Below are positions 7,450 through 63,544 of a DNA stretch of 64,000 bases, in pieces. The DNA lies in assembly GCA_018609195.1 (NCBI GenBank), contig JAHCSE010000001.1, positions 9,559 to 73,558 on the forward strand, read 5' to 3'. The notes under the pieces are model-generated. The model was not told the DNA's origin, searched no databases, and saw only the letters and a list, made by a program, of their open reading frames with translations. Both the position numbers and the translations under genes were made by a program. Source of the stretch: Patescibacteria group bacterium. GTDB lineage: Bacteria > Patescibacteriota > Minisyncoccia > Minisyncoccales > RBG-13-36-15. Numbering within the stretch: the stretch's first letter is position 1; each line of letters begins with the position of its first letter.

Positions 7450-7860
7450 TTAAAATTTTAATCCTCCTTCTCTTGCTCCTTCGGCTAGCGCTTTTACTCT
7501 TCCGTGGTATTTGTAACCTCCTCTATCAAAAACTACTTTTTCAATTTTCTTTTTTAAAGCTTTTTCCGCAATTAATTTCCCGACCTTATAAGCTACGGCA
7601 ACTTTTCTCGTCAATTGCTTTTGGGTCTTTTTTATTTCAGTTTTTTGCCTGCCCCGCATCGAATTTTTGCTGGTGCGAGGTTTTTGAATCTCTTGGTCGC
7701 TGGAAGCTGCAAGAGTCTTGCCATTTTCATCATCGATTAATTGAGCATACATATGCTTTGCTGATCTAAATACACAAAGCCGAGGCCTCTGAGCGATGCC
7801 ATAGATCTTGGCTCGTACTCGTCTGTGGCGTCTAAATTTTTTTTGTTGCTTTTCTCGCAT
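7450..7860 (-). CDS. rplR: 50S ribosomal protein L18 (start chosen at internal Met; ORF extends to 7956)
   Basis: [28 protein letters not shown] core; the 168-aa ORF is long for L18, MREKQQ start gives 136 aa. Confidence 0.8.
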
Positions 7861-7956
7861 AAGATTTATAGCTGGTATTTTGTAGCTGGTAGTTCGGGAT
7901 ATTCGAATTTTTTCAAAATCTTCCCAAACTACAAACTGCCAACTACTAACTGCCAA

Positions 7957-13696: not shown

Positions 13697-14113
13697 TTAT
13701 CTTGGCAACACTTCAATTTTTTGTCCCTCTTTTATTTTGACTATTGCTTTTTTATATCCTTTTCTCCAGCCAGTTATTCTCCCTAATCTTCTCCTTTTTT
13801 GAGGAATCTTTATAATTTTAACATCTACGACCTTCACTCCATAAAGACCTTCAATTACCCTTTTAATCTCAATCTTATTAGATCTGGAATAAACTTTAAA
13901 AACGTATTGATTTTTTTTAGTCAAATCGGTAGCTTTCTCTGTGATATGGAGGGATTTTAATATTCGATAGGCATGAAGGGGAATTCCCTTTCTCTCAATT
14001 CTTTTTTCTTCTGGAGGAATTTCAGGTTCTCTCACTTCCTTCACCTTCTTTTCTGGAATTTCTCTTTTCTCTTTTTTAATTTTTTTCTTTCGAAAACGGT
14101 CTAAAATTCCCAT
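13697..14113 (-). CDS. rplW: 50S ribosomal protein L23 with N-terminal extension
   Basis: 138 aa; YVFKVYSRSNKIEIKRVIEGLYGVKV. Confidence 0.85.
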   Translation of the reverse strand: MGILDRFRKKKIKKEKREIPEKKVKEVREPEIPPEEKRIERKGIPLHAYRILKSLHITEKATDLTKKNQYVFKVYSRSNKIEIKRVIEGLYGVKVVDVKIIKIPQKRRRLGRITGWRKGYKKAIVKIKEGQKIEVLPR

Positions 14114-14132
14114 ATTGTTATTACAGAGCGAA

Positions 14133-14276
14133 GTCGCTCGCCCTCCTCCAGCCTTTGGCTGGCGGTCGCCTTCGGCGACCTTCGGGCTCGCTCTTTAGAA
14201 ACCCTCGGTTTCTAACACTCGCTTCGCTTGCTGTTTTCCTACACGGGAGAACCTATGGTTCTCCCGACCCCTCTCC
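14133..14276 (+). repeat. GC-rich structured element family A, copy A1 (overlaps the rplD 3' end)
   Basis: GTCGCTCGCCCTCCTCCAG..hairpin GGTCGCC-TTC-GGCGACC..TAGAAACC-CTC-GGTTTCTA..CTGTTTTCCTACACGGGAGAACC-TATG-GGTTCTCCCGACCCCTC. Confidence 0.8.
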
Positions 14277-14923
14277 ATTTTGGGCAGCAAATTGGGTTTC
14301 AGGAATGTCTCTTTTATTATATTTATTGATTCTTTAGGTATTAATAAATATTTGAAAGAAAGTAAGTCCAAGGGATTTAAATCTTTAGTCTGGGTAGTTT
14401 CTACTTTAGGAATATTTTTTGAGGCTCTAATGACAGCTTCCTCTTTTGTAGGAAGAGCAATCAAACAAGATGCTTTTTTTATTGGTAGATTATTTAAAAT
14501 CTCAACAATCAATTTTGTCTTTGGTTTATCTAATTTTAAAGAATCCAAAAGAACTATTAAATTTTCTTTAGCTTTCGTTGATAATACCATAAACAAAGCT
14601 TTTCTTCTCATTTTTTTAGGAATTTTTTGCTTAAAAACTCTCGTTTTTCTTGGTCCAAAAGTGATTCCTCCTCCTCGCCAGATTGGAGAACGAATAGAGC
14701 CTGCCCTCGCTCTCCCTGTTCCTTTTTGCCGCCAGGGTTTTCTTCCTCCACCCCGAACCTCAGCTCTAATTTTGGTATGAGCGATAGGAATCCTTCTATT
14801 TGCCATCTGGCTCACCACTACCTGATGTACTAAATCAGGATTGATTTTCACATCAAAAATTTCTTTTGGTAATGAAGTTTTCCCAACTTCTTTTCCTTCT
14901 TGATTGTAAGTCTTAATAAACAT
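14195..14923 (-). CDS. rplD: 50S ribosomal protein L4; the last ~27 codons are encoded by repeat element A1
   Basis: 242 aa vs ~205 typical; C-terminal MERGRENHRFSRVGKQQAKRVLETEGF is read from the GC-rich element. Confidence 0.85.
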   Translation of the reverse strand: MFIKTYNQEGKEVGKTSLPKEIFDVKINPDLVHQVVVSQMANRRIPIAHTKIRAEVRGGGRKPWRQKGTGRARAGSIRSPIWRGGGITFGPRKTRVFKQKIPKKMRRKALFMVLSTKAKENLIVLLDSLKLDKPKTKLIVEILNNLPIKKASCLIALPTKEEAVIRASKNIPKVETTQTKDLNPLDLLSFKYLLIPKESINIIKETFLKPNLLPKMERGRENHRFSRVGKQQAKRVLETEGF

Positions 14924-14932
14924 AAGTTAATA

Positions 14933-15078
14933 GCGAGGGTAAGTTTTTCAAAGAGCATCTCGGAGGCATCGCTGGCATGGTGTCCGAGCGCAACGAGGAA
15001 CAGCGACGCCGAGAGTTGAACAAAATTTTCCTCGCTGGGGAAAATTATTGTGTCTCTTTGAGGAAGCTTTGCCCGAAC
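14933..15078 (+). repeat. GC-rich structured element family B, copy B1 (rplC-rplD spacer)
   Basis: About 92% identical to 20289..20435; nested inverted repeats CTCGGAGGCRTCGCTG / CAGCGACGCCGAGAG and TCAAAGAG / CTCTTTGA. Confidence 0.8.
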
Positions 15079-15080
15079 GC

Positions 15081-15674
15081 TTATCCTCTAATTTCAAGCA
15101 GTGTTCCTTTTGCTCCTGGTACTGCTCCCTTCACTGCTAATAAATTATTTTCTGCATCAACTTTCACAACTTTTAAATTTTTCACTGTAACTCTTTCAAA
15201 GCCCATTCTGCCTGGCATTTTTTTTCCTTTAATCACTCTCTCTGGGAATGAAGAACCAACAGATCCCGGAGTTCTGGCTTCATGCTTTACTCCGTGAGAA
15301 GCTCCTCTTCCAGCAAATCCCCATCTTTTGACTACTCCGGCAAATCCTTTTCCTTTTGAGATACCAGAAATTTTCACTTTTTCTCCTTCCTCAAAAATTG
15401 AAACATCAATCTTTTGCCCTTCTTTAAAATCCTTTGCTTTATTTTTAAATTCTCTTAGAAATCTGAAAGGTTTTTTCCTCAGTGGTTTTTTAATCCGCTT
15501 TTTTTTCTCTATTTTTTTAAAACCGAGTTGAATAGCTTCGTACCTATCTTTTTCTTCGGTCTTCACTTGCGTGACAAAACAGGGGCCAGCCTCGATTACT
15601 GTTACTGACAAGACATTACCTTTTTCATCAAATATCTGGGACATTCCTAATTTTTGACCAAGAATAAACTTCAT
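15081..15674 (-). CDS. rplC: 50S ribosomal protein L3
   Basis: 197 aa; MKFILGQKLGMSQIFDEKGNVLSVTVIEAGPC. Confidence 0.9.
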   Translation of the reverse strand: MKFILGQKLGMSQIFDEKGNVLSVTVIEAGPCFVTQVKTEEKDRYEAIQLGFKKIEKKKRIKKPLRKKPFRFLREFKNKAKDFKEGQKIDVSIFEEGEKVKISGISKGKGFAGVVKRWGFAGRGASHGVKHEARTPGSVGSSFPERVIKGKKMPGRMGFERVTVKNLKVVKVDAENNLLAVKGAVPGAKGTLLEIRG

Positions 15675-15678
15675 ACTT

Positions 15679-15745
15679 TCCTACGAATTACTCTATCGCT
15701 AAGCGACTCCCCGGAGGGTTGATATTTGCGAATATACGAATAATA
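15679..15745 (-). promoter_or_regulatory. TTCGTA-repeat leader/promoter motif upstream of rplC
   Basis: Minus-strand TATTCGTATATTCGCA...GTAATTCGTAGGAAAGT-ATG. Confidence 0.45.
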
Positions 15746-15871
15746 ATTTTCCAACAAAATACCGGGCACTAACCCGGTACTTTATTTTGTAGGTTAGTTA
15801 ATTTTATAATTTTATAAATTTTTGAAATAATTATTTCTTATCATAATGAGATAAAAAATATATTCGTAGGT

Positions 15872-15900
15872 ATCTACATTTTTATTTCGATATCACCTCC
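15872..15900. repeat. 29-nt near-exact duplicate of the rpsJ 3' end (direct repeat flanking element A2)
   Basis: atctacatttttatttcgatatcacctcc vs atctacatttttatttcgatgtcaactcc at 16007..16035. Confidence 0.8.
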
Positions 15901-15996
15901 GTCGCTCCGCTCCTTAGAAACCCGCGGTTTCTAACGCTCGCTTCACTCGCTGTTTTCCTACACGGGGAGACACCCAGTCTCCCCGACCCCTTCTGT
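15901..15996 (+). repeat. GC-rich structured element family A, copy A2 (short form, immediately after the rpsJ stop)
   Basis: GTCGCTCCGCTCC..TAGAAACC-CGC-GGTTTCTA..CTGTTTTCCTACACGGGGAGAC-ACCCA-GTCTCCCCGACCCCTTC. Confidence 0.8.
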
Positions 15997-16009
15997 GCGG
16001 AGTTGCCAT

Positions 16010-16354
16010 CTACATTTTTATTTCGATGTCAACTCCGGCTGGTAAATTTAAATTCATCAGAGAATCGATCACTTTTGAGCTAGGATTTAAAATATCAATG
16101 AGTCTTTTGTGAATTCTCGTTTCAAACTGTTCTCGGGCATCTTTGTGGATAAAAGAAGATCTATTGACGGTGTATTTGTGAATTTCAGTTGGTAAGGGGA
16201 CAGGTCCCGAGACCTCCGCCCCATATCTTAAAACAGTCTCCACAATCTGCCGAGCACTGCTATCTATAACTTTGTGGTCATAGGCTTTAAGCCTTATCCT
16301 AATCCTTGGCTTAACTTCTTCCTCAATTTCTTTTGATTTTTCCTTAACTTTCAT
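16010..16354 (-). CDS. rpsJ: 30S ribosomal protein S10
   Basis: 114 aa; [14 protein letters not shown]... Confidence 0.9.
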
Positions 16355-16458
16355 CTTAAAAAGGACAAAAAATTTTTAGGTTTTAGCGTTTAGGATCTAG
16401 GTCTATTAAGTGATATTAAATTTAAAAAAACTCGACGCTAAAACCTAGGCGCTAGACC

Positions 16459-17658
16459 CTATTTCACTATCTTCGTCACCACTCCTGCCCCCACTGTCTT
16501 TCCTCCCTCTCTGATGGCAAATCTTTGTTTTTCTTCCAAGGCGATAGGAAAAATTAATTTGATCTTCAAATTAACCGTATCCCCTGGCATAACCATTTCT
16601 GTACCTTCTAGTAAAGTTACCTCTCCTGTAACATCGGTGGTCCGGAAATAAAATTGGGGTTTATAACCAGAAAAGAAAGGAGTATGCCTTCCCCCTTCTT
16701 CTTTCGTTAGCACATAGACTTCTCCTTCAAAATCAGTATGGGGGGTAATTGAACCCGGTTTAGCTAGAACCTGACCTCTTTCCACTTCTTCTTTTTTTAA
16801 TCCCCTTACTAAGATTCCAACATTATCTCCTGCTCTTCCTTCGTCAAGTATTTTGTTAAACATTTCAATACTCACAACCACAGTTTTAATAGTAGGTCGC
16901 AAACCAACCAGTTCAACTTCTTCATTAGGGTGAACTATTCCCCGTTCGATTCTGCCCGTAGCCACCGTTCCTCTCCCTGCAATAGAGAAAACATCTTCAA
17001 TAGCCATCAAAACGGGTTTATCAATTTCTCTCACTGGTTCTGGAATAAAATCATCTAAGGCTTTAACCAAATCCAAAATTGGTTTAGCTTTTTCATCATC
17101 AGGGGAACTGGCCTCCAAGGCTTTCAAAGCCGATCCTCTAATTATTGGAGTTTTATCTCCTGGGAAACCATATTTTTTCAAAAGCTCCCTGAGTTCTGAC
17201 TCCACTAAGTTAATCATCTCTTGATCTTCTACGAGATCGCATTTATTCAAGAAAATAACAATTGAAGGCAGACCAACCTGTCTTGCTAATAAAATGTGTT
17301 CTCTAGTCTGGGGCATGGGGCCATCAGGAGCAGAAACTACTAGAATTGCTCCATCCATTTGAGCAGCTCCCGTAATCATGTTTTTGATGTAATCTGCATG
17401 GCCTGGACAATCAATATGAGCGTAGTGTCTTTTCTCGGTCTCGTATTCAACGTGAGTAATATTGATAGTCAATCCTCGAGCCCTTTCTTCGGGAGCTGAA
17501 TCAATTTCCTCCACTGTCTTTTTTGAGGTCCGCAATCCTTTTAACCCCAAGATTTTCAAAATAGCGGCAGTCAGCGTAGTCTTTCCATGATCGACATGGC
17601 CAATTGTCCCTACGTTGAGATGGGGTTTTACCCTTTCAAATTTTTCTTTCTCTGCCAT
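16459..17658 (-). CDS. tuf: Elongation factor Tu
   Basis: 399 aa; [22 protein letters not shown]. Confidence 0.95.
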
Positions 17659-17847
17659 TTTGTAAGAGCTTCTAGGTTCTCGCTTCTAGGTTTTAGAAAT
17701 TTACTAATTATCTATAAGCTGAAAGCTAAAAGCTGATCTTATATTATTATCTTAGTAAACCCTGAAAAATAGTCAAGCTAGTTTACTAACTAATTTCCTT
17801 TGTATCAAAAATTCCTAACGGGGTCAATAGATTGGTTGTGGATTATC

Positions 17848-17925
17848 CTATTTCCTCTTTCCCTCAATGATCTCCTGAGTAATATTCTGAGGTACTTCTC
17901 CGTAATGGTCGAATTCCATCGTAAA
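17848..17925 (-). pseudogene. Diverged in-frame duplicate of the last ~25 codons of fusA, downstream of element A3
   Basis: Encodes ...[25 protein letters not shown] vs the genuine fusA end [25 protein letters not shown]; nucleotide identity is low at synonymous sites. Confidence 0.7.
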
Positions 17926-18097
17926 GTCGCTCCGCTCCTCCAGTCTTCGGCTGGCGCTCCCCGCCAACATCTTCGAAGTTGTGGCGGGTCGCTTCGCTCC
18001 GCTCCCCAGACACCTCTCGGTTTCTGGCGGTCGTCGCTTCGCTCCTCCCTGTTTTCCTACACGGGAAAACACCCAGTTTTCCCGACCCCTTTCTGCT
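17926..18097 (+). repeat. GC-rich structured element family A, copy A3 (between the fusA stop and its duplicated 3' end)
   Basis: GTCGCTCCGCTCCTCCAG..long hairpin CCCGCCAACATCTTCGAAGTTGTGGCGGG..CTGTTTTCCTACACGGGAAAAC-ACCCA-GTTTTCCCGACCCCTTTCTG. Confidence 0.8.
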
Positions 18098-18120
18098 TCA
18101 CTATGGAGTTTTATCTAAAA

Positions 18121-20256
18121 TTATCTCCGTTTGCCTTCTATAATTTCTTGTGCGATGTTCCCTGGCACTTCACCGTAGTGATCAAACTCCATAGTAAACG
18201 TTCCTCGGCCTTCGGTCATCGATCGCAAAGCTGTGGCATAACCAAACATCTCAGCCAGAGGAACTTTAGCTGAAATTATTTTCAAATTTAACCTATCTTT
18301 TGTTTCTTCAATCTTCCCCCTCCTCGCTCCTAAATCCCCAATAGTATCTCCAAAAAATTCAGAAGGAATAATTACTTCTAATCTCATTATCGGTTCAAGT
18401 AAAATAGGTTTTGCTCTTTTGGCGGCCGTTTGCAAAGCAGCAGATGCAGCTATCTTGAAAGCAAATTCTGAGGAATCAACCTCATGATAGGAACCATCAT
18501 AAAGAGTCACTTCGATGTCAACCATAGGATAGCCTGCAGTTATCCCTTTTTCCATAGCTTCCTTCACTCCTTTTTTCACAGCGGGGATAAATTCTTTTGG
18601 GATGATTCCTCCTTTAATCTCGTCGATAAATTCAAATCCCTCTCCTCGTGTTTTGGGCCGAATTTTCAAGAAAACATGACCATATTGGCCTCTGCCGCCT
18701 GATTGTCTAATATATTTTCCTTCAGCTGAAGTTTCCTCTTTTATTGTTTCTTTATAGGCAACCTGAGGTCTTCCGGATGAAGCTTCCACCTTAAATTCTC
18801 TTCTCATTCGATCATTAATTATCTCTAAATGGAGCTCCCCCATTCCTGAGATAATAGTTTCTCCCGTTTCTAAATCACTTTTAATTTTAAAAGTGGGGTC
18901 TTCCTCAGCCAATCTTTTCAAAGCTAAACTCATTTTCTCTTGGTCGGCCTTCGTTTTCGGTTCAATTCGAATGGAAATGACAGGTTCTGGAAAGGTAATT
19001 TTTTCTAAGACAATGGGGTTATCAGGGTCACAAAGAGTATGACCAGTACTAGTTTTTTTTAATCCAACCGTAGCCCCAATATCTCCAGCGAAAAACTCTT
19101 GTACTTCCTCACGATCTGCCGCATGCATCCTTAAAATTCTCCCAATTCTCTCTTTCTCGCCCGTAGTTGCATTTAATACATAAGAACCTCTTTTTAAGCT
19201 ACCTGCATAAACTCGGAAATAATTTAAAGTTCCAACATAAGGATCAGCAGCAGATTTAAAAACCAAAGCGGAAAATGATTCTGAATCTAAAACTTTTCTT
19301 TCAATTTCCTGACCATTTCGAGGATCAACTCCTCTCACCGGAGGTAAATCCAAGGGGCTAGGCAAAAAATTCACAATTCCATCTAAGAGAGGCTGAATTC
19401 CTTTATTTCTCAAAGCTGATCCACAAAATACCGGGATGAGTTTGTAGGAAATTGTGGCTTTTCTCAATACTTCTCTCAATTCATTGATTGAAATTTCCTT
19501 TTTGGCTAAGTATTTCTCTAAAAGTTTCTCATCTTCAGCTGCAATTTTCTCCACTAATTTTTCTCGCCACTCTTTAGCGATCTTGCGCAAATTTTCAGGT
19601 ATCTCTTCTTCAACAACATTCTGGCCAAAGTCACCTTCAAATTTTAAGGCTCGCATTGTAAAGAGATCAATCACTCCTTCAAAATTTTCCTCGCTACCAA
19701 TTGGTAATTGAAGAACCACCGCCTGGGGAGATAATTTTTCCCAAATTGATTGCAAGCTCTTTTCAAAAGAAGCTCCTGTCCTATCCATTTTATTGATAAA
19801 GCAAATTCTGGGAACAGAAAATCTATCTGCTTGATGCCATACCGTCTCAGATTGAGGTTCTACTCCTGCTACTCCATCGAAAATCACTACCGCCCCATCC
19901 AAAACTCGCAAAGATCTTTGTACTTCCGCTGTAAAATCAATATGGCCAGGAGTATCAATAATGTTTATTCGATACTCATCTTTTTTGCTTTTTTCTTTGG
20001 ATTGACCGGGGGCGGTGTGTGGGTGATAGGTGGATGGAGTCCAAAAACAAGTAGTGGCTGCAGCTGTAATAGTAATTCCCCTTTCTTTTTCTTGAATCAT
20101 CCAATCCATTATTGCCTCCCCTTCATGAACTTCTCCAATTTTATGAGAAATTCCAGTATAGAAAAGCACCCGCTCAGTAACGGTTGTTTTCCCAGCATCG
20201 ATATGAGCAATAATACCAATATTGCGAGTTCGTTCTATTGGATACAAACGAGGCAT
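18121..20256 (-). CDS. fusA: Elongation factor G
   Basis: 711 aa; AHIDAGKTT, full EF-G domain set. Confidence 0.95.
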
Positions 20257-20288
20257 AATTTGTAGAAGCGGATTTACGCGGATCTAAA

Positions 20289-20435
20289 GCGAGGGTAAGC
20301 TTCTCAAAGAGCATCTCGGAGGCGTCGCTGGCAAGGTGTCCGAGTAAAGCGAGGAACAGCGACGCCGAGAGTTGAACAAAATTTTCCTCGCTGGGAAAAA
20401 TTATTGTGTCTCTTTGAGGGGGCTTTGCCCGAGCG
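20289..20435 (+). repeat. GC-rich structured element family B, copy B2 (fusA 5' side)
   Basis: Near-identical to B1 (14933..15078). Confidence 0.8.
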
Positions 20436-20452
20436 AATCACCAAGCCAAATG

Positions 20453-20612
20453 GTCGCTCGCCCTCCTCCAGCGCAGAGCGCTGGCGGACGCCTTTGGCGT
20501 CCTTCGGGCTCACTCCCCAGACACCTCTCGGTTTCTGGCGCTCCTTCGCTTTCGCTCAGTCACTGTTTTCCTATACGGGGAAACACCCAGTTTCCCCGAC
20601 CCCTTTCTGCCA
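20453..20612 (+). repeat. GC-rich structured element family A, copy A4 (abuts the rpsG stop)
   Basis: GTCGCTCGCCCTCCTCCAG..GGACGCC-TTT-GGCGTCC (compensatory vs A1)..CTGTTTTCCTATACGGGGAAAC-ACCCA-GTTTCCCCGACCCCTTTCTG. Confidence 0.8.
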
Positions 20613-20619
20613 CTTTGCG

Positions 20620-21087
20620 TTACCACGCAAAGTGGGCAAAAGCTCTATTCGCCTCTGCCATCCTGTGAGTATTTTCTTTCTTTTTCACTGCCCAGCCAGT
20701 GTTATTTGCGGCTTCTATCATTTCTTCAGCCAATTTCTCTCTCATTGGTTTTCCTTTTCTTGATTTGGCAGCTTGGATAATCCAACGCATAGCTAAAGTT
20801 AGCCTTCTTTCCCCTTTCACTTCTCTCGGAACCTGATAGGTAGCACCTCCAATTCTTTTCGCTTTAACCTCAAGTAAGGGGGAGGCATTTTTCAGAGCCT
20901 GATCAAAAACTTCCAAGGGGTCTTTTTTCGTTTTTCCTTTAATTATATCAAAGGCCTGATAAACAATTCTTCTCGCCAGCATCTTTTTCCCTCGCCGCAT
21001 TACCTGATTGATAAACTTTGATACAATGATGTTATTGTAAACCGGGTCAGATGTAATTTCCCTTTTTTCTTTTTTCTTCCTCCTCAT
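20620..21087 (-). CDS. rpsG: 30S ribosomal protein S7
   Basis: 155 aa; ends AFAHFAW. Confidence 0.9.
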
Positions 21088-24135: not shown

Positions 24136-24251
24136 ATTTTATTGTAGCAGTTTAAGAAACTCAGTCAAGGTTTAAAATTTTACATATTTCTTCAGGATAT
24201 CCACAGTTTATTAACTATTTCCAAAAATTTTATTAGCTTTCTAAAGTATTT

Positions 24252-25325
24252 TCAGAAATGTAAAACATCTACCATTTGTTTAATTAAAGAAAGAACCACT
24301 GCCGGAGGCAATAAACTGTAAGAAGGAACTCCTTTATCATCAGGAAAAACCCAGGGTTTTTCAATTATTTCCACCTTTTTATCTTCCTCTATCCACTTAT
24401 AGTTATATTCGGGAGTAATTTCATAATCATCTACATATTCTTTTACCCTCTCTACAGGAACTGAATTTCTCAGAAGAATCCTGGGAATTCCATAAAGAGC
24501 GAAGGCTTGTTTAATCAACCGTTCATCCATTGTAAAACGCCTCTTTATTGGCTCTATTCCTCGCTCATCTCCTTCTTTTGCGACCATTTTTATTTCCTGA
24601 CAAGTGGGATTATCACAAATAAAGAAAAACTTTTTGCTCAGTTCATCGTATCTAACTTCTTTCGCTGGATGAAGCCTTAAATTTCTGGGGGTTTGACAGT
24701 TAGGACACACTACTCGAAATTTCATTCTCTCGTCAATTACTTTTCCAGGAACATCAATCAAAATAAAGACATCAGGGTCAGATCTGTAACCAATAAGGTC
24801 TCGGAAAAATAAAGAATATGAGATCTGATCCAAATCTCTCGGAAAACCATCTATAAAAAGGGCTTTTCTTTCCATTTTGTCTATCTCTCCTTTCGCTAAG
24901 GCTAAAATAAATTCAGTTGGCAAAAGAGTCTCCGTATTTCTACTCAAGAGTTTTTCAATTGCTTTCTCAATGGGAAGGAAGCCTCGATAATTTGAGGAAA
25001 GCCGGTGTATCAATTCTTCTTTGTTTTTTTGTTCTAAAATTTCTTGGTGCGATTTTCGAACGATATCTCCAATCGAAACGTGACTCACGCGTTCTTTATT
25101 AACAATCTCTGCAAATATCTTTGAGTAAGTTCCTTTGCCAGAATTCTTTTTCCCCAAGAGATAAGCAATGAAAGTATTTTTCTTGAGATACTCTCTTAAT
25201 TTCTTGATTTCCGATCCCGCCTTGAACTCAAAATATTCCTGTATCTCTTTGGGATCAGCTAAATTGAATTTCCGAGTGGGACCTTTAATTTTTGTTTTAA
25301 AAATCGGGAAGTTAATATCCCTCAT
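24252..25325 (-). CDS. Divergent adenylate/NMP-kinase family paralog with zinc LID and N/C extensions
   Basis: 357 aa; GKKNSGKGT P-loop (AK-type GxxGxGKGT), DGFPR NMP-binding motif, CPNC...CDNPTC. Confidence 0.55.
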   Translation of the reverse strand: MRDINFPIFKTKIKGPTRKFNLADPKEIQEYFEFKAGSEIKKLREYLKKNTFIAYLLGKKNSGKGTYSKIFAEIVNKERVSHVSIGDIVRKSHQEILEQKNKEELIHRLSSNYRGFLPIEKAIEKLLSRNTETLLPTEFILALAKGEIDKMERKALFIDGFPRDLDQISYSLFFRDLIGYRSDPDVFILIDVPGKVIDERMKFRVVCPNCQTPRNLRLHPAKEVRYDELSKKFFFICDNPTCQEIKMVAKEGDERGIEPIKRRFTMDERLIKQAFALYGIPRILLRNSVPVERVKEYVDDYEITPEYNYKWIEEDKKVEIIEKPWVFPDDKGVPSYSLLPPAVVLSLIKQMVDVLHF

Positions 25326-35679: not shown

Positions 35680-35830
35680 AAAAATGTGTCCTCCTCCGTT
35701 AAAACTTTGGAGGACATGGATGGCATTCTGACTTTCACAGTTACGGCATAGTCCCGGATTTCCTGCCCGCATCGCTATACGAAGTATTGCAGGCGGGTCA
35801 CCGGAGTTCCCCATCCGTTTTCAAAGTCCG
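35680..35830 (-). ncRNA. Candidate cobalamin riboswitch in the 5' leader of the B12-uptake/nrdJ gene string
   Basis: Minus-strand GGGGAACTCCGGTGACCCGCC ... GGAAATCCGGGACTATGCCGTAACTGTGA resembles GGGAAnnnGGTGa / AAnTCC / CCGCnACnGTnA cores; GC-rich and structured. Confidence 0.4.
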
Positions 35831-62664: not shown

Positions 62665-62668
62665 AAAA

Positions 62669-63346
62669 TTAACGTGATGTAAACCAACGATTGGCAGCAG
62701 GAGGATAGATTTTTGTGAGAGGGTGAGATTTACAATCGTGCGATCTCGCAGGACAAATTTTTCTTCCATAGTCAATCATCCGATAGGTAAAATCGGACCA
62801 TTCTTTTTTTGGTAAAATTCTCATGAGATCTTTTTCGATCTTATCTGGATTTTTTGAGTCGGTTAAATCAAATTTTAAGGAAAGGCGCCTTACATGTGTA
62901 TCAACAGCTATCCCCTCTACTATTCCGTAAACATTACCTAAGACAATGTTTGCAGTCTTTCTGCCAATTCCAGGAAGCTGAGTTAATTCCTCCATACTTT
63001 TTGGAATCTTTCCTTTGTACTTTTCTTTAATAATTTTGGCAGTTGAAAGTATATTTTTTGCTTTCGTTTTATAAAGTCCTATTTCTCTGATATCTGCTTC
63101 AAATTCTTTCAAATTAGCTTTTGCATAATTATCAAGAGTTTTGTATTTTTGAAAAAGACTTTTCGTAACCTCATTAACTTTTTTATCAGTCGTTTGGGCA
63201 GACAAAACTACAGTTACCAGCAGCGCCCAATTGTTTTTATAATGTAAAGCAATTTTTGTTTTAGGAAATAATCTTTTTAACTCTTTCACAATTTTTAAAA
63301 TTCTTTCTTTTCTCTCTTGAAATTTTTTATCCTCTTTAGCGTTCAT
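62669..63346 (-). CDS. nth: Endonuclease III (Nth) with degenerate Fe-S motif
   Basis: 225 aa; HhH-GPD LPGIGRKTA; only CPARSHDC retained at C-terminus. Confidence 0.8.
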   Translation of the reverse strand: MNAKEDKKFQERKERILKIVKELKRLFPKTKIALHYKNNWALLVTVVLSAQTTDKKVNEVTKSLFQKYKTLDNYAKANLKEFEADIREIGLYKTKAKNILSTAKIIKEKYKGKIPKSMEELTQLPGIGRKTANIVLGNVYGIVEGIAVDTHVRRLSLKFDLTDSKNPDKIEKDLMRILPKKEWSDFTYRMIDYGRKICPARSHDCKSHPLTKIYPPAANRWFTSR

Positions 63347-63386
63347 TCTCTTTTATTGTATTGGAATTTTAATTCCGATACAACAC

Positions 63387-63510
63387 AGGAGGGGTCGGGA
63401 GGATTGGGTATCCTCCCGTATAGGAAAACAGGCTTTCAGGTGAGCGAAGCGAAGACTGAAAACGTTAGAAACCGTGGGTGTCTAAAGAACATGGTGCCGA
63501 GCGTTAGCGA
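63387..63510 (-). repeat. GC-rich structured element family A, copy A5 in inverted orientation
   Basis: Reverse complement reads ...GGTTTCTAACG..CGCTTCGCTCAC..CTGTTTTCCTATACGGGAGGATACCCAATCCTCCCGACCCCTCCTG. Confidence 0.75.
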
Positions 63511-63544
63511 GGTCTATGTTCTTATACCGCATTTTATTCACAAA

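Follow-up and report, generated by a model that had tools for sequence, protein, structure and literature searches.

Several described systems resemble the repeat family reported here in one respect or another. Phage and ICE att-type elements insert at the 3' ends of tRNA and housekeeping genes and bring a substitute for the end that they displace, and folded single-strand substrates or guided targeting are known from integron attC, CTX-phi attP, the guide-target pairing of IS200/IS605 and the bridge RNA of IS110. GC clusters and 'byp' elements have reportedly been described in the AT-rich mitochondrial genomes of yeast (by Lang and colleagues, in PNAS in 2014), and Ogata and colleagues are said to have described the Rickettsia palindromic elements (RPEs) in Science in 2000. 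The term RPE also appears in PMC1166351 and PMC1458961. REP, BIME and REPIN elements are mobilised by RAYT transposases (PMC3337134, PMC3733652), and the bacterial MITEs (Correia, ERIC, BOX and RUP) are treated in a review (PMC3184786).

The family, for which the name E is used here, comprises GC-rich, multi-hairpin, non-coding repeats of approximately 110–190 nt, and one copy (A1) lies at the rplD–rplW junction of the window, i.e. the whole 64,000-nucleotide stretch of DNA that was analysed. Many copies are arranged in the order gene end (T1), a segment that is the reverse complement of the start of T1 (G), the element, and a displaced second gene end (T2). Like RPEs, E is a small non-coding palindromic repeat of a reduced genome that joins housekeeping or essential ORFs without a conserved peptide function. 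However, when the two are compared by description rather than by sequence, RPEs are typically, and often, in frame inside ORFs, whereas E is overwhelmingly intergenic (genes run into 3 of 77 copies), and an RPE interrupts a domain whereas E at L4 replaces a stop codon. To our knowledge, target-derived flanks (T1, G and T2) have not been described for RPEs. The byps are likewise GC-rich mobile hairpins in an AT-rich reduced genome, some of them inside coding sequence, but they are bypassed by the ribosome, nothing suggests bypassing for E, and size and sequence are unrelated.

With REP, BIME and REPIN elements, E shares GC-rich, structure-conserved, extragenic hairpins at gene ends, lack of autonomy and a GTAG motif. 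An assignment to the REPs was rejected, as these are palindromes of 20–40 nt with GTAG/CGTC at the 5' foot, whereas in E 2 nt separate the 3' side of hairpin P1 from the GTAG, beyond which the element runs on for a further 60–150 nt; nor do REPs duplicate 15–113 nt of target. MITEs are also short, structured, multi-copy, non-autonomous and co-transcribed, and they too can reshape the ends of genes and the regions where translation starts. A MITE is bounded by terminal inverted repeats that come from its parent IS; the only counterpart seen in E is a short closing helix (in class I copies GGGGTCG/CGAC plus a purine linker with a pyrimidine stretch). Short target-site duplications of fixed length were not found either. 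Flanking direct repeats of variable length (15–113 nt), as in SINE-like, target-primed elements, accompany approximately 27–31 of 77 copies and are undetectable at most copies of class I, to which A1 belongs. In the genome loci from L004 onward, the 2.5 kb around each copy holds no recurrent ORF for a transposase, an integrase or a reverse transcriptase, and neither a RAYT-like ORF, a parent IS nor a partner reverse transcriptase was found there; the neighbouring ORFs are housekeeping genes, apart from a LAGLIDADG-like family whose linkage to E is loose. No catalytic core of a group I or group II intron in Rfam matches E.

As with att-type elements, E sits at the 3' halves of tRNAs and at the conserved ends of fusA, rpsJ, rpsG and rplD, a replacement end stands on the element side with the native end displaced beyond it, and the adjoining functional end and the displaced far copy differ as orthologues do across lineages. 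However, E, at approximately 150 nt, is non-coding, has no integrase or recombinase of its own and no linked recombinase ORF, its targets have no core sequence in common, and att sites lack the inverted G copy of the target start. Folded single-strand substrates and guide-target systems also combine a conserved fold with variable sequence, and by analogy the stem segment of E that copies the target could specify the site by base pairing, though this likeness is purely architectural, and E, with no fixed site, goes to conserved gene ends of any kind.

The rplD–rplW junction

The minus-strand gene order in the window is rpsL-rpsG-fusA-tuf-rpsJ-rplC-rplD-rplW-rplB. The rplD gene is the ORF 14195..14923 of 242 codons, ending in ...KETFLK-PNLLPKMERGRENHRFSRVGKQQAKRVLETEGF*, and the features around its 3' end are:

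14297..14923, minus strand: homologous part of rplD (uL4), residues 1–209, to ETFLK, where the PF00573 homologues (no more than 81 % identical) stop
14195..14296, minus strand: 33-codon extension of L4 (PNLLPK plus MERGRENHRFSRVGKQQAKRVLETEGF) with the TAA stop at 14195–14197; relatives have no homologous tail
14285..14296, minus strand: junction segment CCCAATTTGCTG, from the last L4 homology codon to the A1 5' extension, read from the sequence; it can pair with the following CAAAATGG
14114..14284, minus strand: A1, a class I copy, from a covariance-model match at 14186–14281 (97 bits, E-value 4e-24) and a five-copy alignment
14244..14266, minus strand: hairpin P1 of A1 (CGGGAGAACC-ATA-GGTTCTCCCG), with compensatory double changes at five pairs in 44 copies
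14195..14215, minus strand: hairpin P3 of A1 (TTAGAAACC-GAG-GGTTTCTAA), which holds the L4 stop, with two covarying pairs (UA<->CG)
13697..14113, minus strand: rplW (uL23), its ATG (14111–14113) directly abutting the A1 3' extension, which ends at 14114; at 15 or more further loci such an extension likewise adjoins a start codon

The A1 copy consists of a 5' extension (CCCAAAATGGAGA), the core with hairpins P1–P3, two 3' GNRA-like hairpins and a 3' extension (CTTCGCTCTGTAATAACAAT). Its closing helix pairs ATGGAG-A-GGGGTCG with CGACTTC-G-CTCTGT, and its RNA fold has an energy of -75.7 kcal/mol (z -5.3).

A preliminary description of this DNA had the rplD frame running into A1, and the comparison of L4 homologues that it proposed bears this out. 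Homology stops at ETFLK(K), approximately at residue 209 (K codon, 14297–14299), the native stop is lost, and the tail is read from the element; of the 120 best L4 homologues, 118 lack a tail and are approximately 209–216 aa long or deviate only N-terminally or internally. The tail had been put at approximately 27 codons, which is correct for the part derived from the element core, but the whole extension in and beside A1 is 33 codons (14198–14296). The last 27 (MERG...GF) come from GGGGTCGGG, hairpin P1, CCCGTGTAGGAAAACAG, P2 and half of P3, the first six from the A1 5' extension and the junction segment, and the TAA is in the 3' strand of P3. An open frame of 33 codons in sequence of 55 % GC is not improbable alone; the loss of the native stop is the significant fact.

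The tail is basic and unconserved. Querying a protein word index with the end of L4 and its tail gave only six fragments, too few to tell of further tailed L4s. Among the 120 best hits only P0032 and P0096, two distant L4s, are tailed, both with long basic tails, and both carry the same element in their DNA in another frame, so that no tailed relative lacking the element was found. The tails read FSRVGKQ versus SRKT/YRKTG because the length of P1 differs by one nucleotide. The frame thus varies while the DNA stays, placing the constraint on nucleotides and not on the peptide; the element DNA is conserved across tailed L4s and the tail peptide is not.

The N-terminus of L23 agrees with those of relatives, and 81 nt separate the stop of L4 from the start of rplW. 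The proposal that the rplW ribosome-binding site lies inside the element holds only in position: the ATG abuts the element, but there is no Shine-Dalgarno-like 4-mer in the last 20 nt of A1. Such 4-mers precede only 4 of 56 long ORFs in the genome.

At the same junction in the closest relatives, the L4 stop is followed by 2–4 nt and the rplW ATG (...TTGAAATAAtgatATG in L088 and ...AAAAAATAAgtATG in L089), and L001 and L007 have a longer AT-rich spacer instead. The covariance model found no E at the rplD–rplW junction of L001, L088, L089, L090 or L007, and in 40 metagenomic S10 loci it found a single weak match, elsewhere in the locus. In L002, which has the element, the original L4 end (SVKVIKETFLK*, then aatATG) is retained downstream of it. 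With empty junctions in relatives and a displaced L4 end in L002, the earlier view that an inserted element remodelled both the L4 end and the rplW initiation region is upheld. The relative L007 (L4 78 % identical) has A3 and A4, which follow fusA and rpsG, but neither A1 nor A2, the copy after rpsJ, and this dates A1 as more recent. E occupies the junction, with the L4 stop lost each time, in three distant lineages (the window, L002 and L003), which could reflect a site preference or some benefit rather than accident. At A1, neither a displaced L4 end (T2) nor the G/T1/T2 arrangement was found, only a weak 8-bp hairpin (CCAATTTG/CAAAATGG), and as there is no T2 the history of insertion and deletion there cannot be reconstructed from the window alone.

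The element family and the displaced gene ends

A covariance model trained on 44 copies from other genomes finds exactly five copies of E in the window, at 73–97 bits, and nothing else below an E-value of 0.1. The four besides A1 are:

15872..16037, minus strand: A2, after rpsJ (T1 16008–16037, G 15998–16007, element approximately 15901–15990, T2 15872–15901)
17848..18198, minus strand: A3, after fusA (T1 18121–18198, G 18097–18107, element approximately 17926–18089, T2 17848–17925)
20438..20635, minus strand: A4, after rpsG (T1 20620–20635, G 20610–20619, element approximately 20454–20603, T2 20438–20453)
63381..63520, plus strand: A5, a variant whose 5' extension is a hairpin; it precedes the gene at 62668–63346 and points away from it

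T1 and T2 of A2 are identical at 28 of 30 positions. At A3, which has an orthologous copy in L007, T1 is the true EF-G C-terminus and T2 is displaced. The ORF 17848..18072 at A3, previously taken to be spurious, does contain the FSRVGKQ core as claimed (it starts MFSRVGKQ), but it is not simply spurious, as its last 25 codons are the displaced copy of the EF-G C-terminus. At A4, T1 and G form a perfect 10-bp stem around the stop codon, and in the orthologous copy of L007, which scores 58 bits and has a mutated core, two compensatory changes preserve that stem.

A pattern scan found 84 stretches of E in MAGs of Patescibacteria (CPR). Each module comprises three to six hairpins, in which seven pairs of P1 and P3 have compensatory changes (44 copies) and the motifs GGGGTCGGG and GTGTAGGAAAACAG are invariant; the single-stranded motifs are invariant across CPR orders and several candidate phyla. 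In 44 co-directional contexts the orientation is biased to sense (36 sense versus 8 antisense), and four copies are antisense to the 5' end of fusA. At more than 15 loci the class I 3' extension ends 0–3 nt before start codons or tRNA 5' ends. The same DNA is non-coding at more than 70 loci, beside unrelated genes and tRNAs, and the real read-ins (3 of 77 copies) are all at gene 3' ends; their rarity fits accident rather than design.

With Rfam 15 at the gathering threshold no copy of E gave a match, and the region 13900–21000 gave none even at an E-value of up to 5. Several other identities were tried and rejected: E is not recognised as tRNA-like in an ARAGORN tRNA/tmRNA scan of the window, it has neither an Rfam match to nor the core motifs of the hammerhead, HDV, twister, pistol or hatchet ribozymes, and it forms no array as a CRISPR repeat would. 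An attenuator formed by pairing of GGAAAACAG with the P1 3' strand was discarded because the pairing is lost where P1 covaries. The core pattern has no match in IMG/VR viral contigs, nor has A1 in blastn searches of phage and plasmid collections, and judging from these sequences E is not evidently carried by known vectors. No description of E was found in the literature on the core sequence, on CPR repeats or on Nealsonbacteria. The family is widespread in Patescibacteria and apparently undescribed.

Pairs of T1 and T2 occur at the 3' and 5' ends of fusA, at rpsJ, rpsG and rplD (in L002) and at more than ten tRNA genes. They differ mainly at third codon positions (54 of 69 differences), with 55 synonymous and 9 non-synonymous codon differences. 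At class II loci the upstream T1 completes its gene, stop codon included, and a guide-like segment can base-pair at either boundary of the element; scoring inverted repeats in 45-nt flanks was too noisy in this AT-rich DNA, and a boundary-anchored test with cross-locus controls was used instead. At four tRNA loci T2 has CCA and T1 does not, and the opposite case was never observed, though CCA confined to T2 is only suggestive as a hallmark of an RNA-derived copy.

Origin of the junction and of the L4 tail

The comparisons show that A1 is a copy of E inserted between rplD and rplW and that the L4 stop is lost; the probable explanation is that the tail is a tolerated by-product and that E is a mobile or horizontally spreading insertion. 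A class I copy took the junction in the lineage of the window after it split from all sampled relatives, and the L4 stop codon and the coupling spacer were lost with this. Ribosomes on rplD would then run on for 33 codons, through the 5' half of the element to the TAA in P3, and rplW, uncoupled translationally from rplD, would initiate on the AU-rich 3' extension of E. Presence or absence at the same junctions together with the multi-copy distribution suggests mobility. The L4 tail is presumably made, and presumably harmless; most likely it is a by-product of the insertion and not a selected protein feature.

How E moves, and what it does, admits several answers. Tentatively, E may be a new kind of non-autonomous element, homing by base pairing or homology to the ends at which essential genes and tRNAs are conserved. 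The unit would consist of a replacement gene end (T1), a target-mimicking stem formed with the inverted T1 start (G) and the conserved multi-hairpin core. The site would be chosen by pairing or homology at the first 10–20 nt of T, with no fixed att site, and the route may lead through a single strand that folds up, or through reverse transcription that the closing helix primes by snapping back. Under homing the host gene would stay intact because the element supplies its end, and a tail such as that of L4 would arise if the duplicated segment ended one codon before the stop. Possibly, and on a par with homing, E is instead a domesticated structural RNA of operon transcripts, a 'punctuation' of gene boundaries, stabiliser or initiation module that is not, or not only, selfish; the T1:G hairpin would cap the upstream gene end, the 3' extension would present the next start codon, and the overlap with L4 would be tolerated or even useful in letting ribosomes unfold E. 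The covarying hairpins and invariant single-stranded motifs across several candidate phyla, the 3' end placed exactly at start codons and mature tRNA 5' ends, the favoured sense orientation (36 versus 8) and the compensated T1:G stem at rpsG in the window and L007 all agree with such a role, as does the scarcity of Shine-Dalgarno sites, given which unstructured AU-rich leaders would matter. However, most relatives have no E at the same junctions, so that E is dispensable, 8 of the 44 co-directional contexts are antisense (including the four at the fusA 5' end), copies decay, as at rpsG in L007, and no Rfam family exists. On the conserved single-stranded motifs and the sense bias, a functional RNA fits as well as a selfish element.

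Other readings concern the tail itself. Though E is compact and structured, has the size of an RNA module and is closed by a helix, with a class II guide-like segment superficially like an internal guide sequence and coding integrity kept in the displaced gene ends, it is unlikely that the tail is never made, i.e. that E or the mRNA is cleaved or removed in the manner of an intron or ribozyme, or that translation terminates otherwise, leaving L4 of normal length. The Rfam intron and ribozyme models remain unmatched even at an E-value of up to 5, no L4 end that could serve as a splice partner lies downstream at A1, an L4-L23 fusion or a stop-less mRNA would result if E were taken out, and class II T1 ends, already complete with a stop, need no splicing. 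Metagenome bins are often misassembled at repeats, as is well known, and the window holds five copies of E, yet a chimeric join or a stop-removing indel is very improbable as the source of the read-through, with both flanks collinear with the conserved S10 operon order, the same junction architecture in two assemblies that other projects made independently (L002, NCBI; L003, Logan), and a whole stop and spacer replaced rather than a mere frameshift. The idea that the tail is an ancestral functional extension of L4, from which the repeats elsewhere derive or which they merely resemble, might draw on the long basic tails of P0032 and P0096, but it is effectively refuted: 118 of the 120 best homologues have no tail, the three tails are different frames of the same DNA, and that DNA is non-coding at more than 70 loci.

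Insertion of E with a by-product tail, the reading preferred here, means that an essential, universally conserved ribosomal protein has a predicted 33-residue tail derived from selfish or structural DNA, and that the tight translational coupling of L4 and L23 has been exchanged for a structured spacer of 81 nt. At least three CPR lineages have had this junction taken over, which illustrates cleanly, in nature, how repeats remodel core genes of minimal genomes, and it carries a warning for annotation, in that element-derived tails will be called as protein in CPR proteomes. The family is of more interest than the L4 tail, its target-derived hairpin and synonymously diverged displaced end being unmatched by known elements. 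If integration is indeed specified by base pairing, E would represent a new mobility route, and it would mark frequent inter-lineage recombination at the core genes of organisms for which growth in isolation is not yet possible.

Structured repeats in and around the str/S10 cluster

The window is AT-rich overall, and its minus strand carries the str/S10 ribosomal cluster rpsL-rpsG-fusA-tuf-rpsJ-rplC-rplD-rplW-rplB-rpsS-rplV-rpsC, in which several intergenic spacers are sharp GC-rich islands (51–61 % GC, against a background mostly of 25–45 %). A repeat search and a five-way alignment defined five copies (A1–A5) of E, a family of GC-rich multi-hairpin repeats.

Copies of E in the window, and the rplD reading frame
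about 14114–14284, minus strand: A1
14195–14923, minus strand: rplD ORF, 242 aa
about 15901–15990, minus strand: A2
about 17926–18089, minus strand: A3
about 20454–20603, minus strand: A4
about 63381–63520, plus strand: A5

Scanning one genome per GTDB species for an exact pattern retrieved 84 stretches, all from Patescibacteria-type MAGs (Nealson-, Niyogi-, Staskawicz-, Jorgensen- and Colwellbacteria, 'Paceibacterota' and others) and often several per MAG. GGGG-C-GGG, CCGT-TAGGAAAACAG and AGAAAC...GGGTTTCT are invariant across 44 aligned copies, and compensatory double changes occur at seven base pairs of hairpins P1 and P3, e.g. GC<->AU in 20 of the 44 sequences. The covariance model built from these 44 copies found exactly five copies in the window (73–97 bits) and no further match there below an E-value of 0.1. 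The predicted fold of A1 has an energy of −75.7 kcal/mol (z = −5.3 relative to shuffles). In all copies, a 6-nt purine linker 5′ of GGGGTCGGG forms a mirror repeat with the first 6 nt of the P1 5′ strand, with covariation between them (AAA/AAA, AGA/AGA, AGG/AGG) and 182 of 260 positions matching vs 139 ± 6 in permutations; such a repeat would fit a purine-motif triplex or pseudo-symmetric helices. Orientation relative to flanking genes favours sense, though not absolutely (36 sense, 8 antisense).

An Rfam search identified no family for E, even at a permissive threshold, and nothing similar was found in IMG/VR, GenBank phages or PLSDB plasmids. No recurrent transposase-like ORF was found near E copies. 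A family of 200–226 aa ORFs, marked by an LYW(G/A)EG motif and an N-terminus resembling a helix-turn-helix, lies 0.2–1.7 kb from E in four MAGs (L049 118–739, L061 1446–2109, L067 1214–1895 and L075 2357–2960), that in L067 having its start at the very end of a tRNA-Glu gene; these are possibly LAGLIDADG-type endonucleases and are not tightly linked to E.

Other elements were noted in the same regions. A second GC-rich structured repeat, B, of about 150 nt and without a match in Rfam, is present at 14924–15080, where it fills the rplC-rplD spacer, and at 20288–20435, between A4 and the fusA start (both minus-strand sense, 92 % identical); a 71 % identical copy occupies the same rplC/rplD junction in L007, and L088 has a B-like sequence after rplC. 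Short ATTCGTAGG / CCTACGAAT(T)A motifs, which may be promoters or another small repeat, recur in AT-rich spacers upstream of rplC, tuf, fusA and other genes in the window (15675–15880, 24220–24260) and its relatives (L001 1320–1400; L002 2400–2460, 4130–4170). An AdoCbl-II (cobalamin) riboswitch aptamer lies at 35713–35827 on the minus strand (39.1 bits vs a gathering score of 36.5).

The rplD/rplW junction

The preliminary description held that A1 extends L4, the rplD product, by about 27 codons. Nearly all of the 120 best homologues, from Candidatus Nealsonbacteria and other Patescibacteria, are 209–216 aa long (~86 % query coverage) and stop in the alignment at ...KETFLK(K/Q), where the window L4 adds 33 residues, PNLLPKMERGRENHRFSRVGKQQAKRVLETEGF. 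The last 27 of these are encoded by the repeat core (AGGGGTCGGG, a hairpin, CCCGTGTAGGAAAACAG and onward), and the stop codon is a TAA within the 3′ strand of the hairpin TTAGAAACC-GAG-GGTTTCTAA. Apart from its length, which is 33 codons, the read-through is as described. A tail in relatives without the element had been named as evidence against this reading; the opposite was found, as the only two homologues with matching long tails (P0032, 238 aa, and P0096, 259 aa) both have E in their DNA. In L002, which encodes P0096, an upstream copy of the gene end (SIKIIKETFLK) has no stop and reads on, and downstream of E the original end, SVKVIKETFLK*, survives in displaced form, with aat and then the rplW ATG after it.

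The three tails diverge in frame after P1 (...FSRVGKQ... in the window, ...PSRKTA... or ...PYRKTG... in the others), because P1 plus its loop differs by one nucleotide in length. Conservation resides in the DNA or RNA and not in the protein, and with the three tails in different frames an ancestral functional L4 tail is excluded. No selection on the tail peptide is visible. Only four ORFs run into E among 77 copies with adequate flanks, hence read-in is rare; one of the four, which overlaps a tRNA, is probably spurious, and two of the other three are L4. We infer that the tail is made and tolerated. In ribosome structures the C-terminus of uL4 faces the solvent on the 50S subunit, and the protein has long C-terminal extensions in archaea and eukaryotes. 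The Rickettsia RPEs likewise provide a repeat-derived protein segment.

In the nearest L4 relatives the junction is without the element and the L4 stop lies 2–4 nt from the L23 start (L088, 81 % identity, ...TTTTTGAAATAAtgatATG; L089, 78 %, ...AAAAAATAAgtATG), and in L001 and L007 (78 %) the two genes are separated by a simple AT-rich spacer. The E model detected no copy at the rplD/rplW junction of L001, L088, L089, L090 or L007, and in 40 metagenomic S10 loci (265 kb) gave one weak match only, elsewhere in its locus. By comparison with these sequences, A1 is an insertion. Since L007 has orthologues of the window's E copies at fusA/tuf and rpsG/fusA but is missing A1 and A2, A1 is a comparatively recent, lineage-specific arrival.

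The rplW ATG (14111–14113) comes straight after the final repeat base, and the 20 nt preceding it (CTTCGCTCTGTAATAACAAT) are the 3′ extension of A1, for which class I copies have the consensus CTAACTTNGTATTACCACT. The rplW initiation region is thus within the element by position, as had been proposed, but the last 20 nt of A1 include no Shine-Dalgarno sequence. The genome hardly uses them: an SD-like 4-mer (GGAG, GAGG or AGGA) lies within −18 to −4 in 4 of 56 long window ORFs, and initiation in this organism appears to be largely SD-independent. Hairpins and a distance of 81 nt now separate rplW from the L4 stop upstream, and on sequence grounds rplW would have lost its tight coupling to rplD and would now depend on the AU-rich extension for its start. 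In at least 15 loci, involving unrelated genes (nusG, rpmF, rplN, rpsG and others), the extension stops 0–3 nt short of a start codon, and an equivalent or shortened version terminates at the first base of mature tRNAs (L038, L067, L080, L086, L087); the E 3′ end also lies just upstream of 16S rRNA (L057) and tmRNA (L014) genes. These positions could mark a boundary for RNA processing or follow from a rule of targeting.

Duplicated gene ends and the proposed movement of E

About 27–31 of the 77 copies (class II) are flanked by direct repeats of 15–113 nt that correspond to the end of the adjacent gene. T1, the gene-attached repeat, is a full gene end that includes its stop codon or tRNA terminus, and T2 is displaced past E and contiguous with the native downstream flank, as checked against the element-free L001 and L002. 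G, of 9–22 nt, is the reverse complement of the start of T and sits 5′ of E beyond a 5–8 nt purine linker.

Gene ends duplicated at E copies
fusA 3′ end: A3, L005, L007
fusA 5′ end, antisense orientation: L010, L071, L077, L084
rpsJ 3′ end: A2
rpsG 3′ end: A4
rplD end: L002
T-arm to 3′ end: more than 10 tRNA genes
Displaced tRNA ends: L017, L023, L025, L029, L032, L037, L063, L076
T1-G-linker-E-T2 layout: window 15872–16037, 17848–18198 and 20438–20635, minus strand; L005, L007, L010, L012, L017, L020, L065, L071, L077, L084 and others
T1 and T2 compared: window 17848–17925 vs 18121–18198; L071, L077, L084, L002, L005

Third codon positions hold 54 of the 69 nucleotide differences between T1 and T2, and 55 codon differences are synonymous vs 9 non-synonymous (binomial p about 3e-14); hence T2 is no duplicate undergoing neutral decay. 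T1 and T2 resemble gene ends that evolved apart, as parts of functional genes, in separate lineages and were then joined by transfer or recombination, and their divergence would imply either inter-lineage exchange or that both copies are under selection. A doubled rplC 3′ end (...EVRGM* and VKEAVLGHKGTILEIRG*) surrounds a different GC-rich hairpin element, not detected by the E model, in L088 (660–830), the closest L4 relative; several families of elements in these genomes may thus have gene-end duplication in common.

The G/T match is above the 95th percentile of cross-locus controls in 19 of 31 loci, in most of which G fits T1 better than T2. Because G is an inverted copy of the T start, the last codons and stop of the gene are enclosed in a hairpin, as in A4 (CCACTTTGCG-TGGTAA-CGCAAAGTGG), L015, L030 and L041. 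The orthologous rpsG-end hairpins of the window (20610–20635) and L007 (approximately 7838–7863) are both perfect 10-bp stems around the stop codon; T1 differs by two synonymous changes (CCACTTTGCG vs CCATTTTGCC), and G (CGCAAAGTGG vs GGCAAAATGG) compensates both. Class I copies are without a clear T/G pair and have a closing helix in which the linker plus GGGGTCG pairs with CGAC and the pyrimidine stretch of the 3′ extension.

At four loci (L017, L029, L079 and L023/L068) the displaced tRNA end includes CCA; the gene copy is without CCA in L017, L029 and L079, where T1 is readable, and the reverse was never seen. This leans weakly towards an RNA-derived step in the movement of E. Several displaced tRNA 3′ halves have a 9–16 nt AGCGAAGCG-type insert in or beside the T-loop, clearest in L017 and L023, where it lies between C56 and R57 (TTC|GAA).

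As to how E might move, a small unit [T-G-E], circular or folded, could integrate by crossover at the T start to give T1-G-E-T2; alternatively, staggered cleavage and target-primed synthesis could give the same layout, with G arising by snap-back priming off the closing helix. Any such model would demand inter-lineage exchange, because T1/T2 divergence is synonymous-only. A live rival, itself compatible with mobility, is that E is a functional RNA serving as gene-end hairpin and start-codon presenter, in which case it would be a bacterial analogue of mitochondrial 'punctuation'.

The observation on L4 is confirmed and its interpretation as the result of an insertion is supported. No description of E was found in the searchable literature; the family is undescribed, and its architecture deserves follow-up. 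It is well supported that E represents an insertion polymorphism targeting gene boundaries, which at rplD/rplW replaced the stop codon and spacer.
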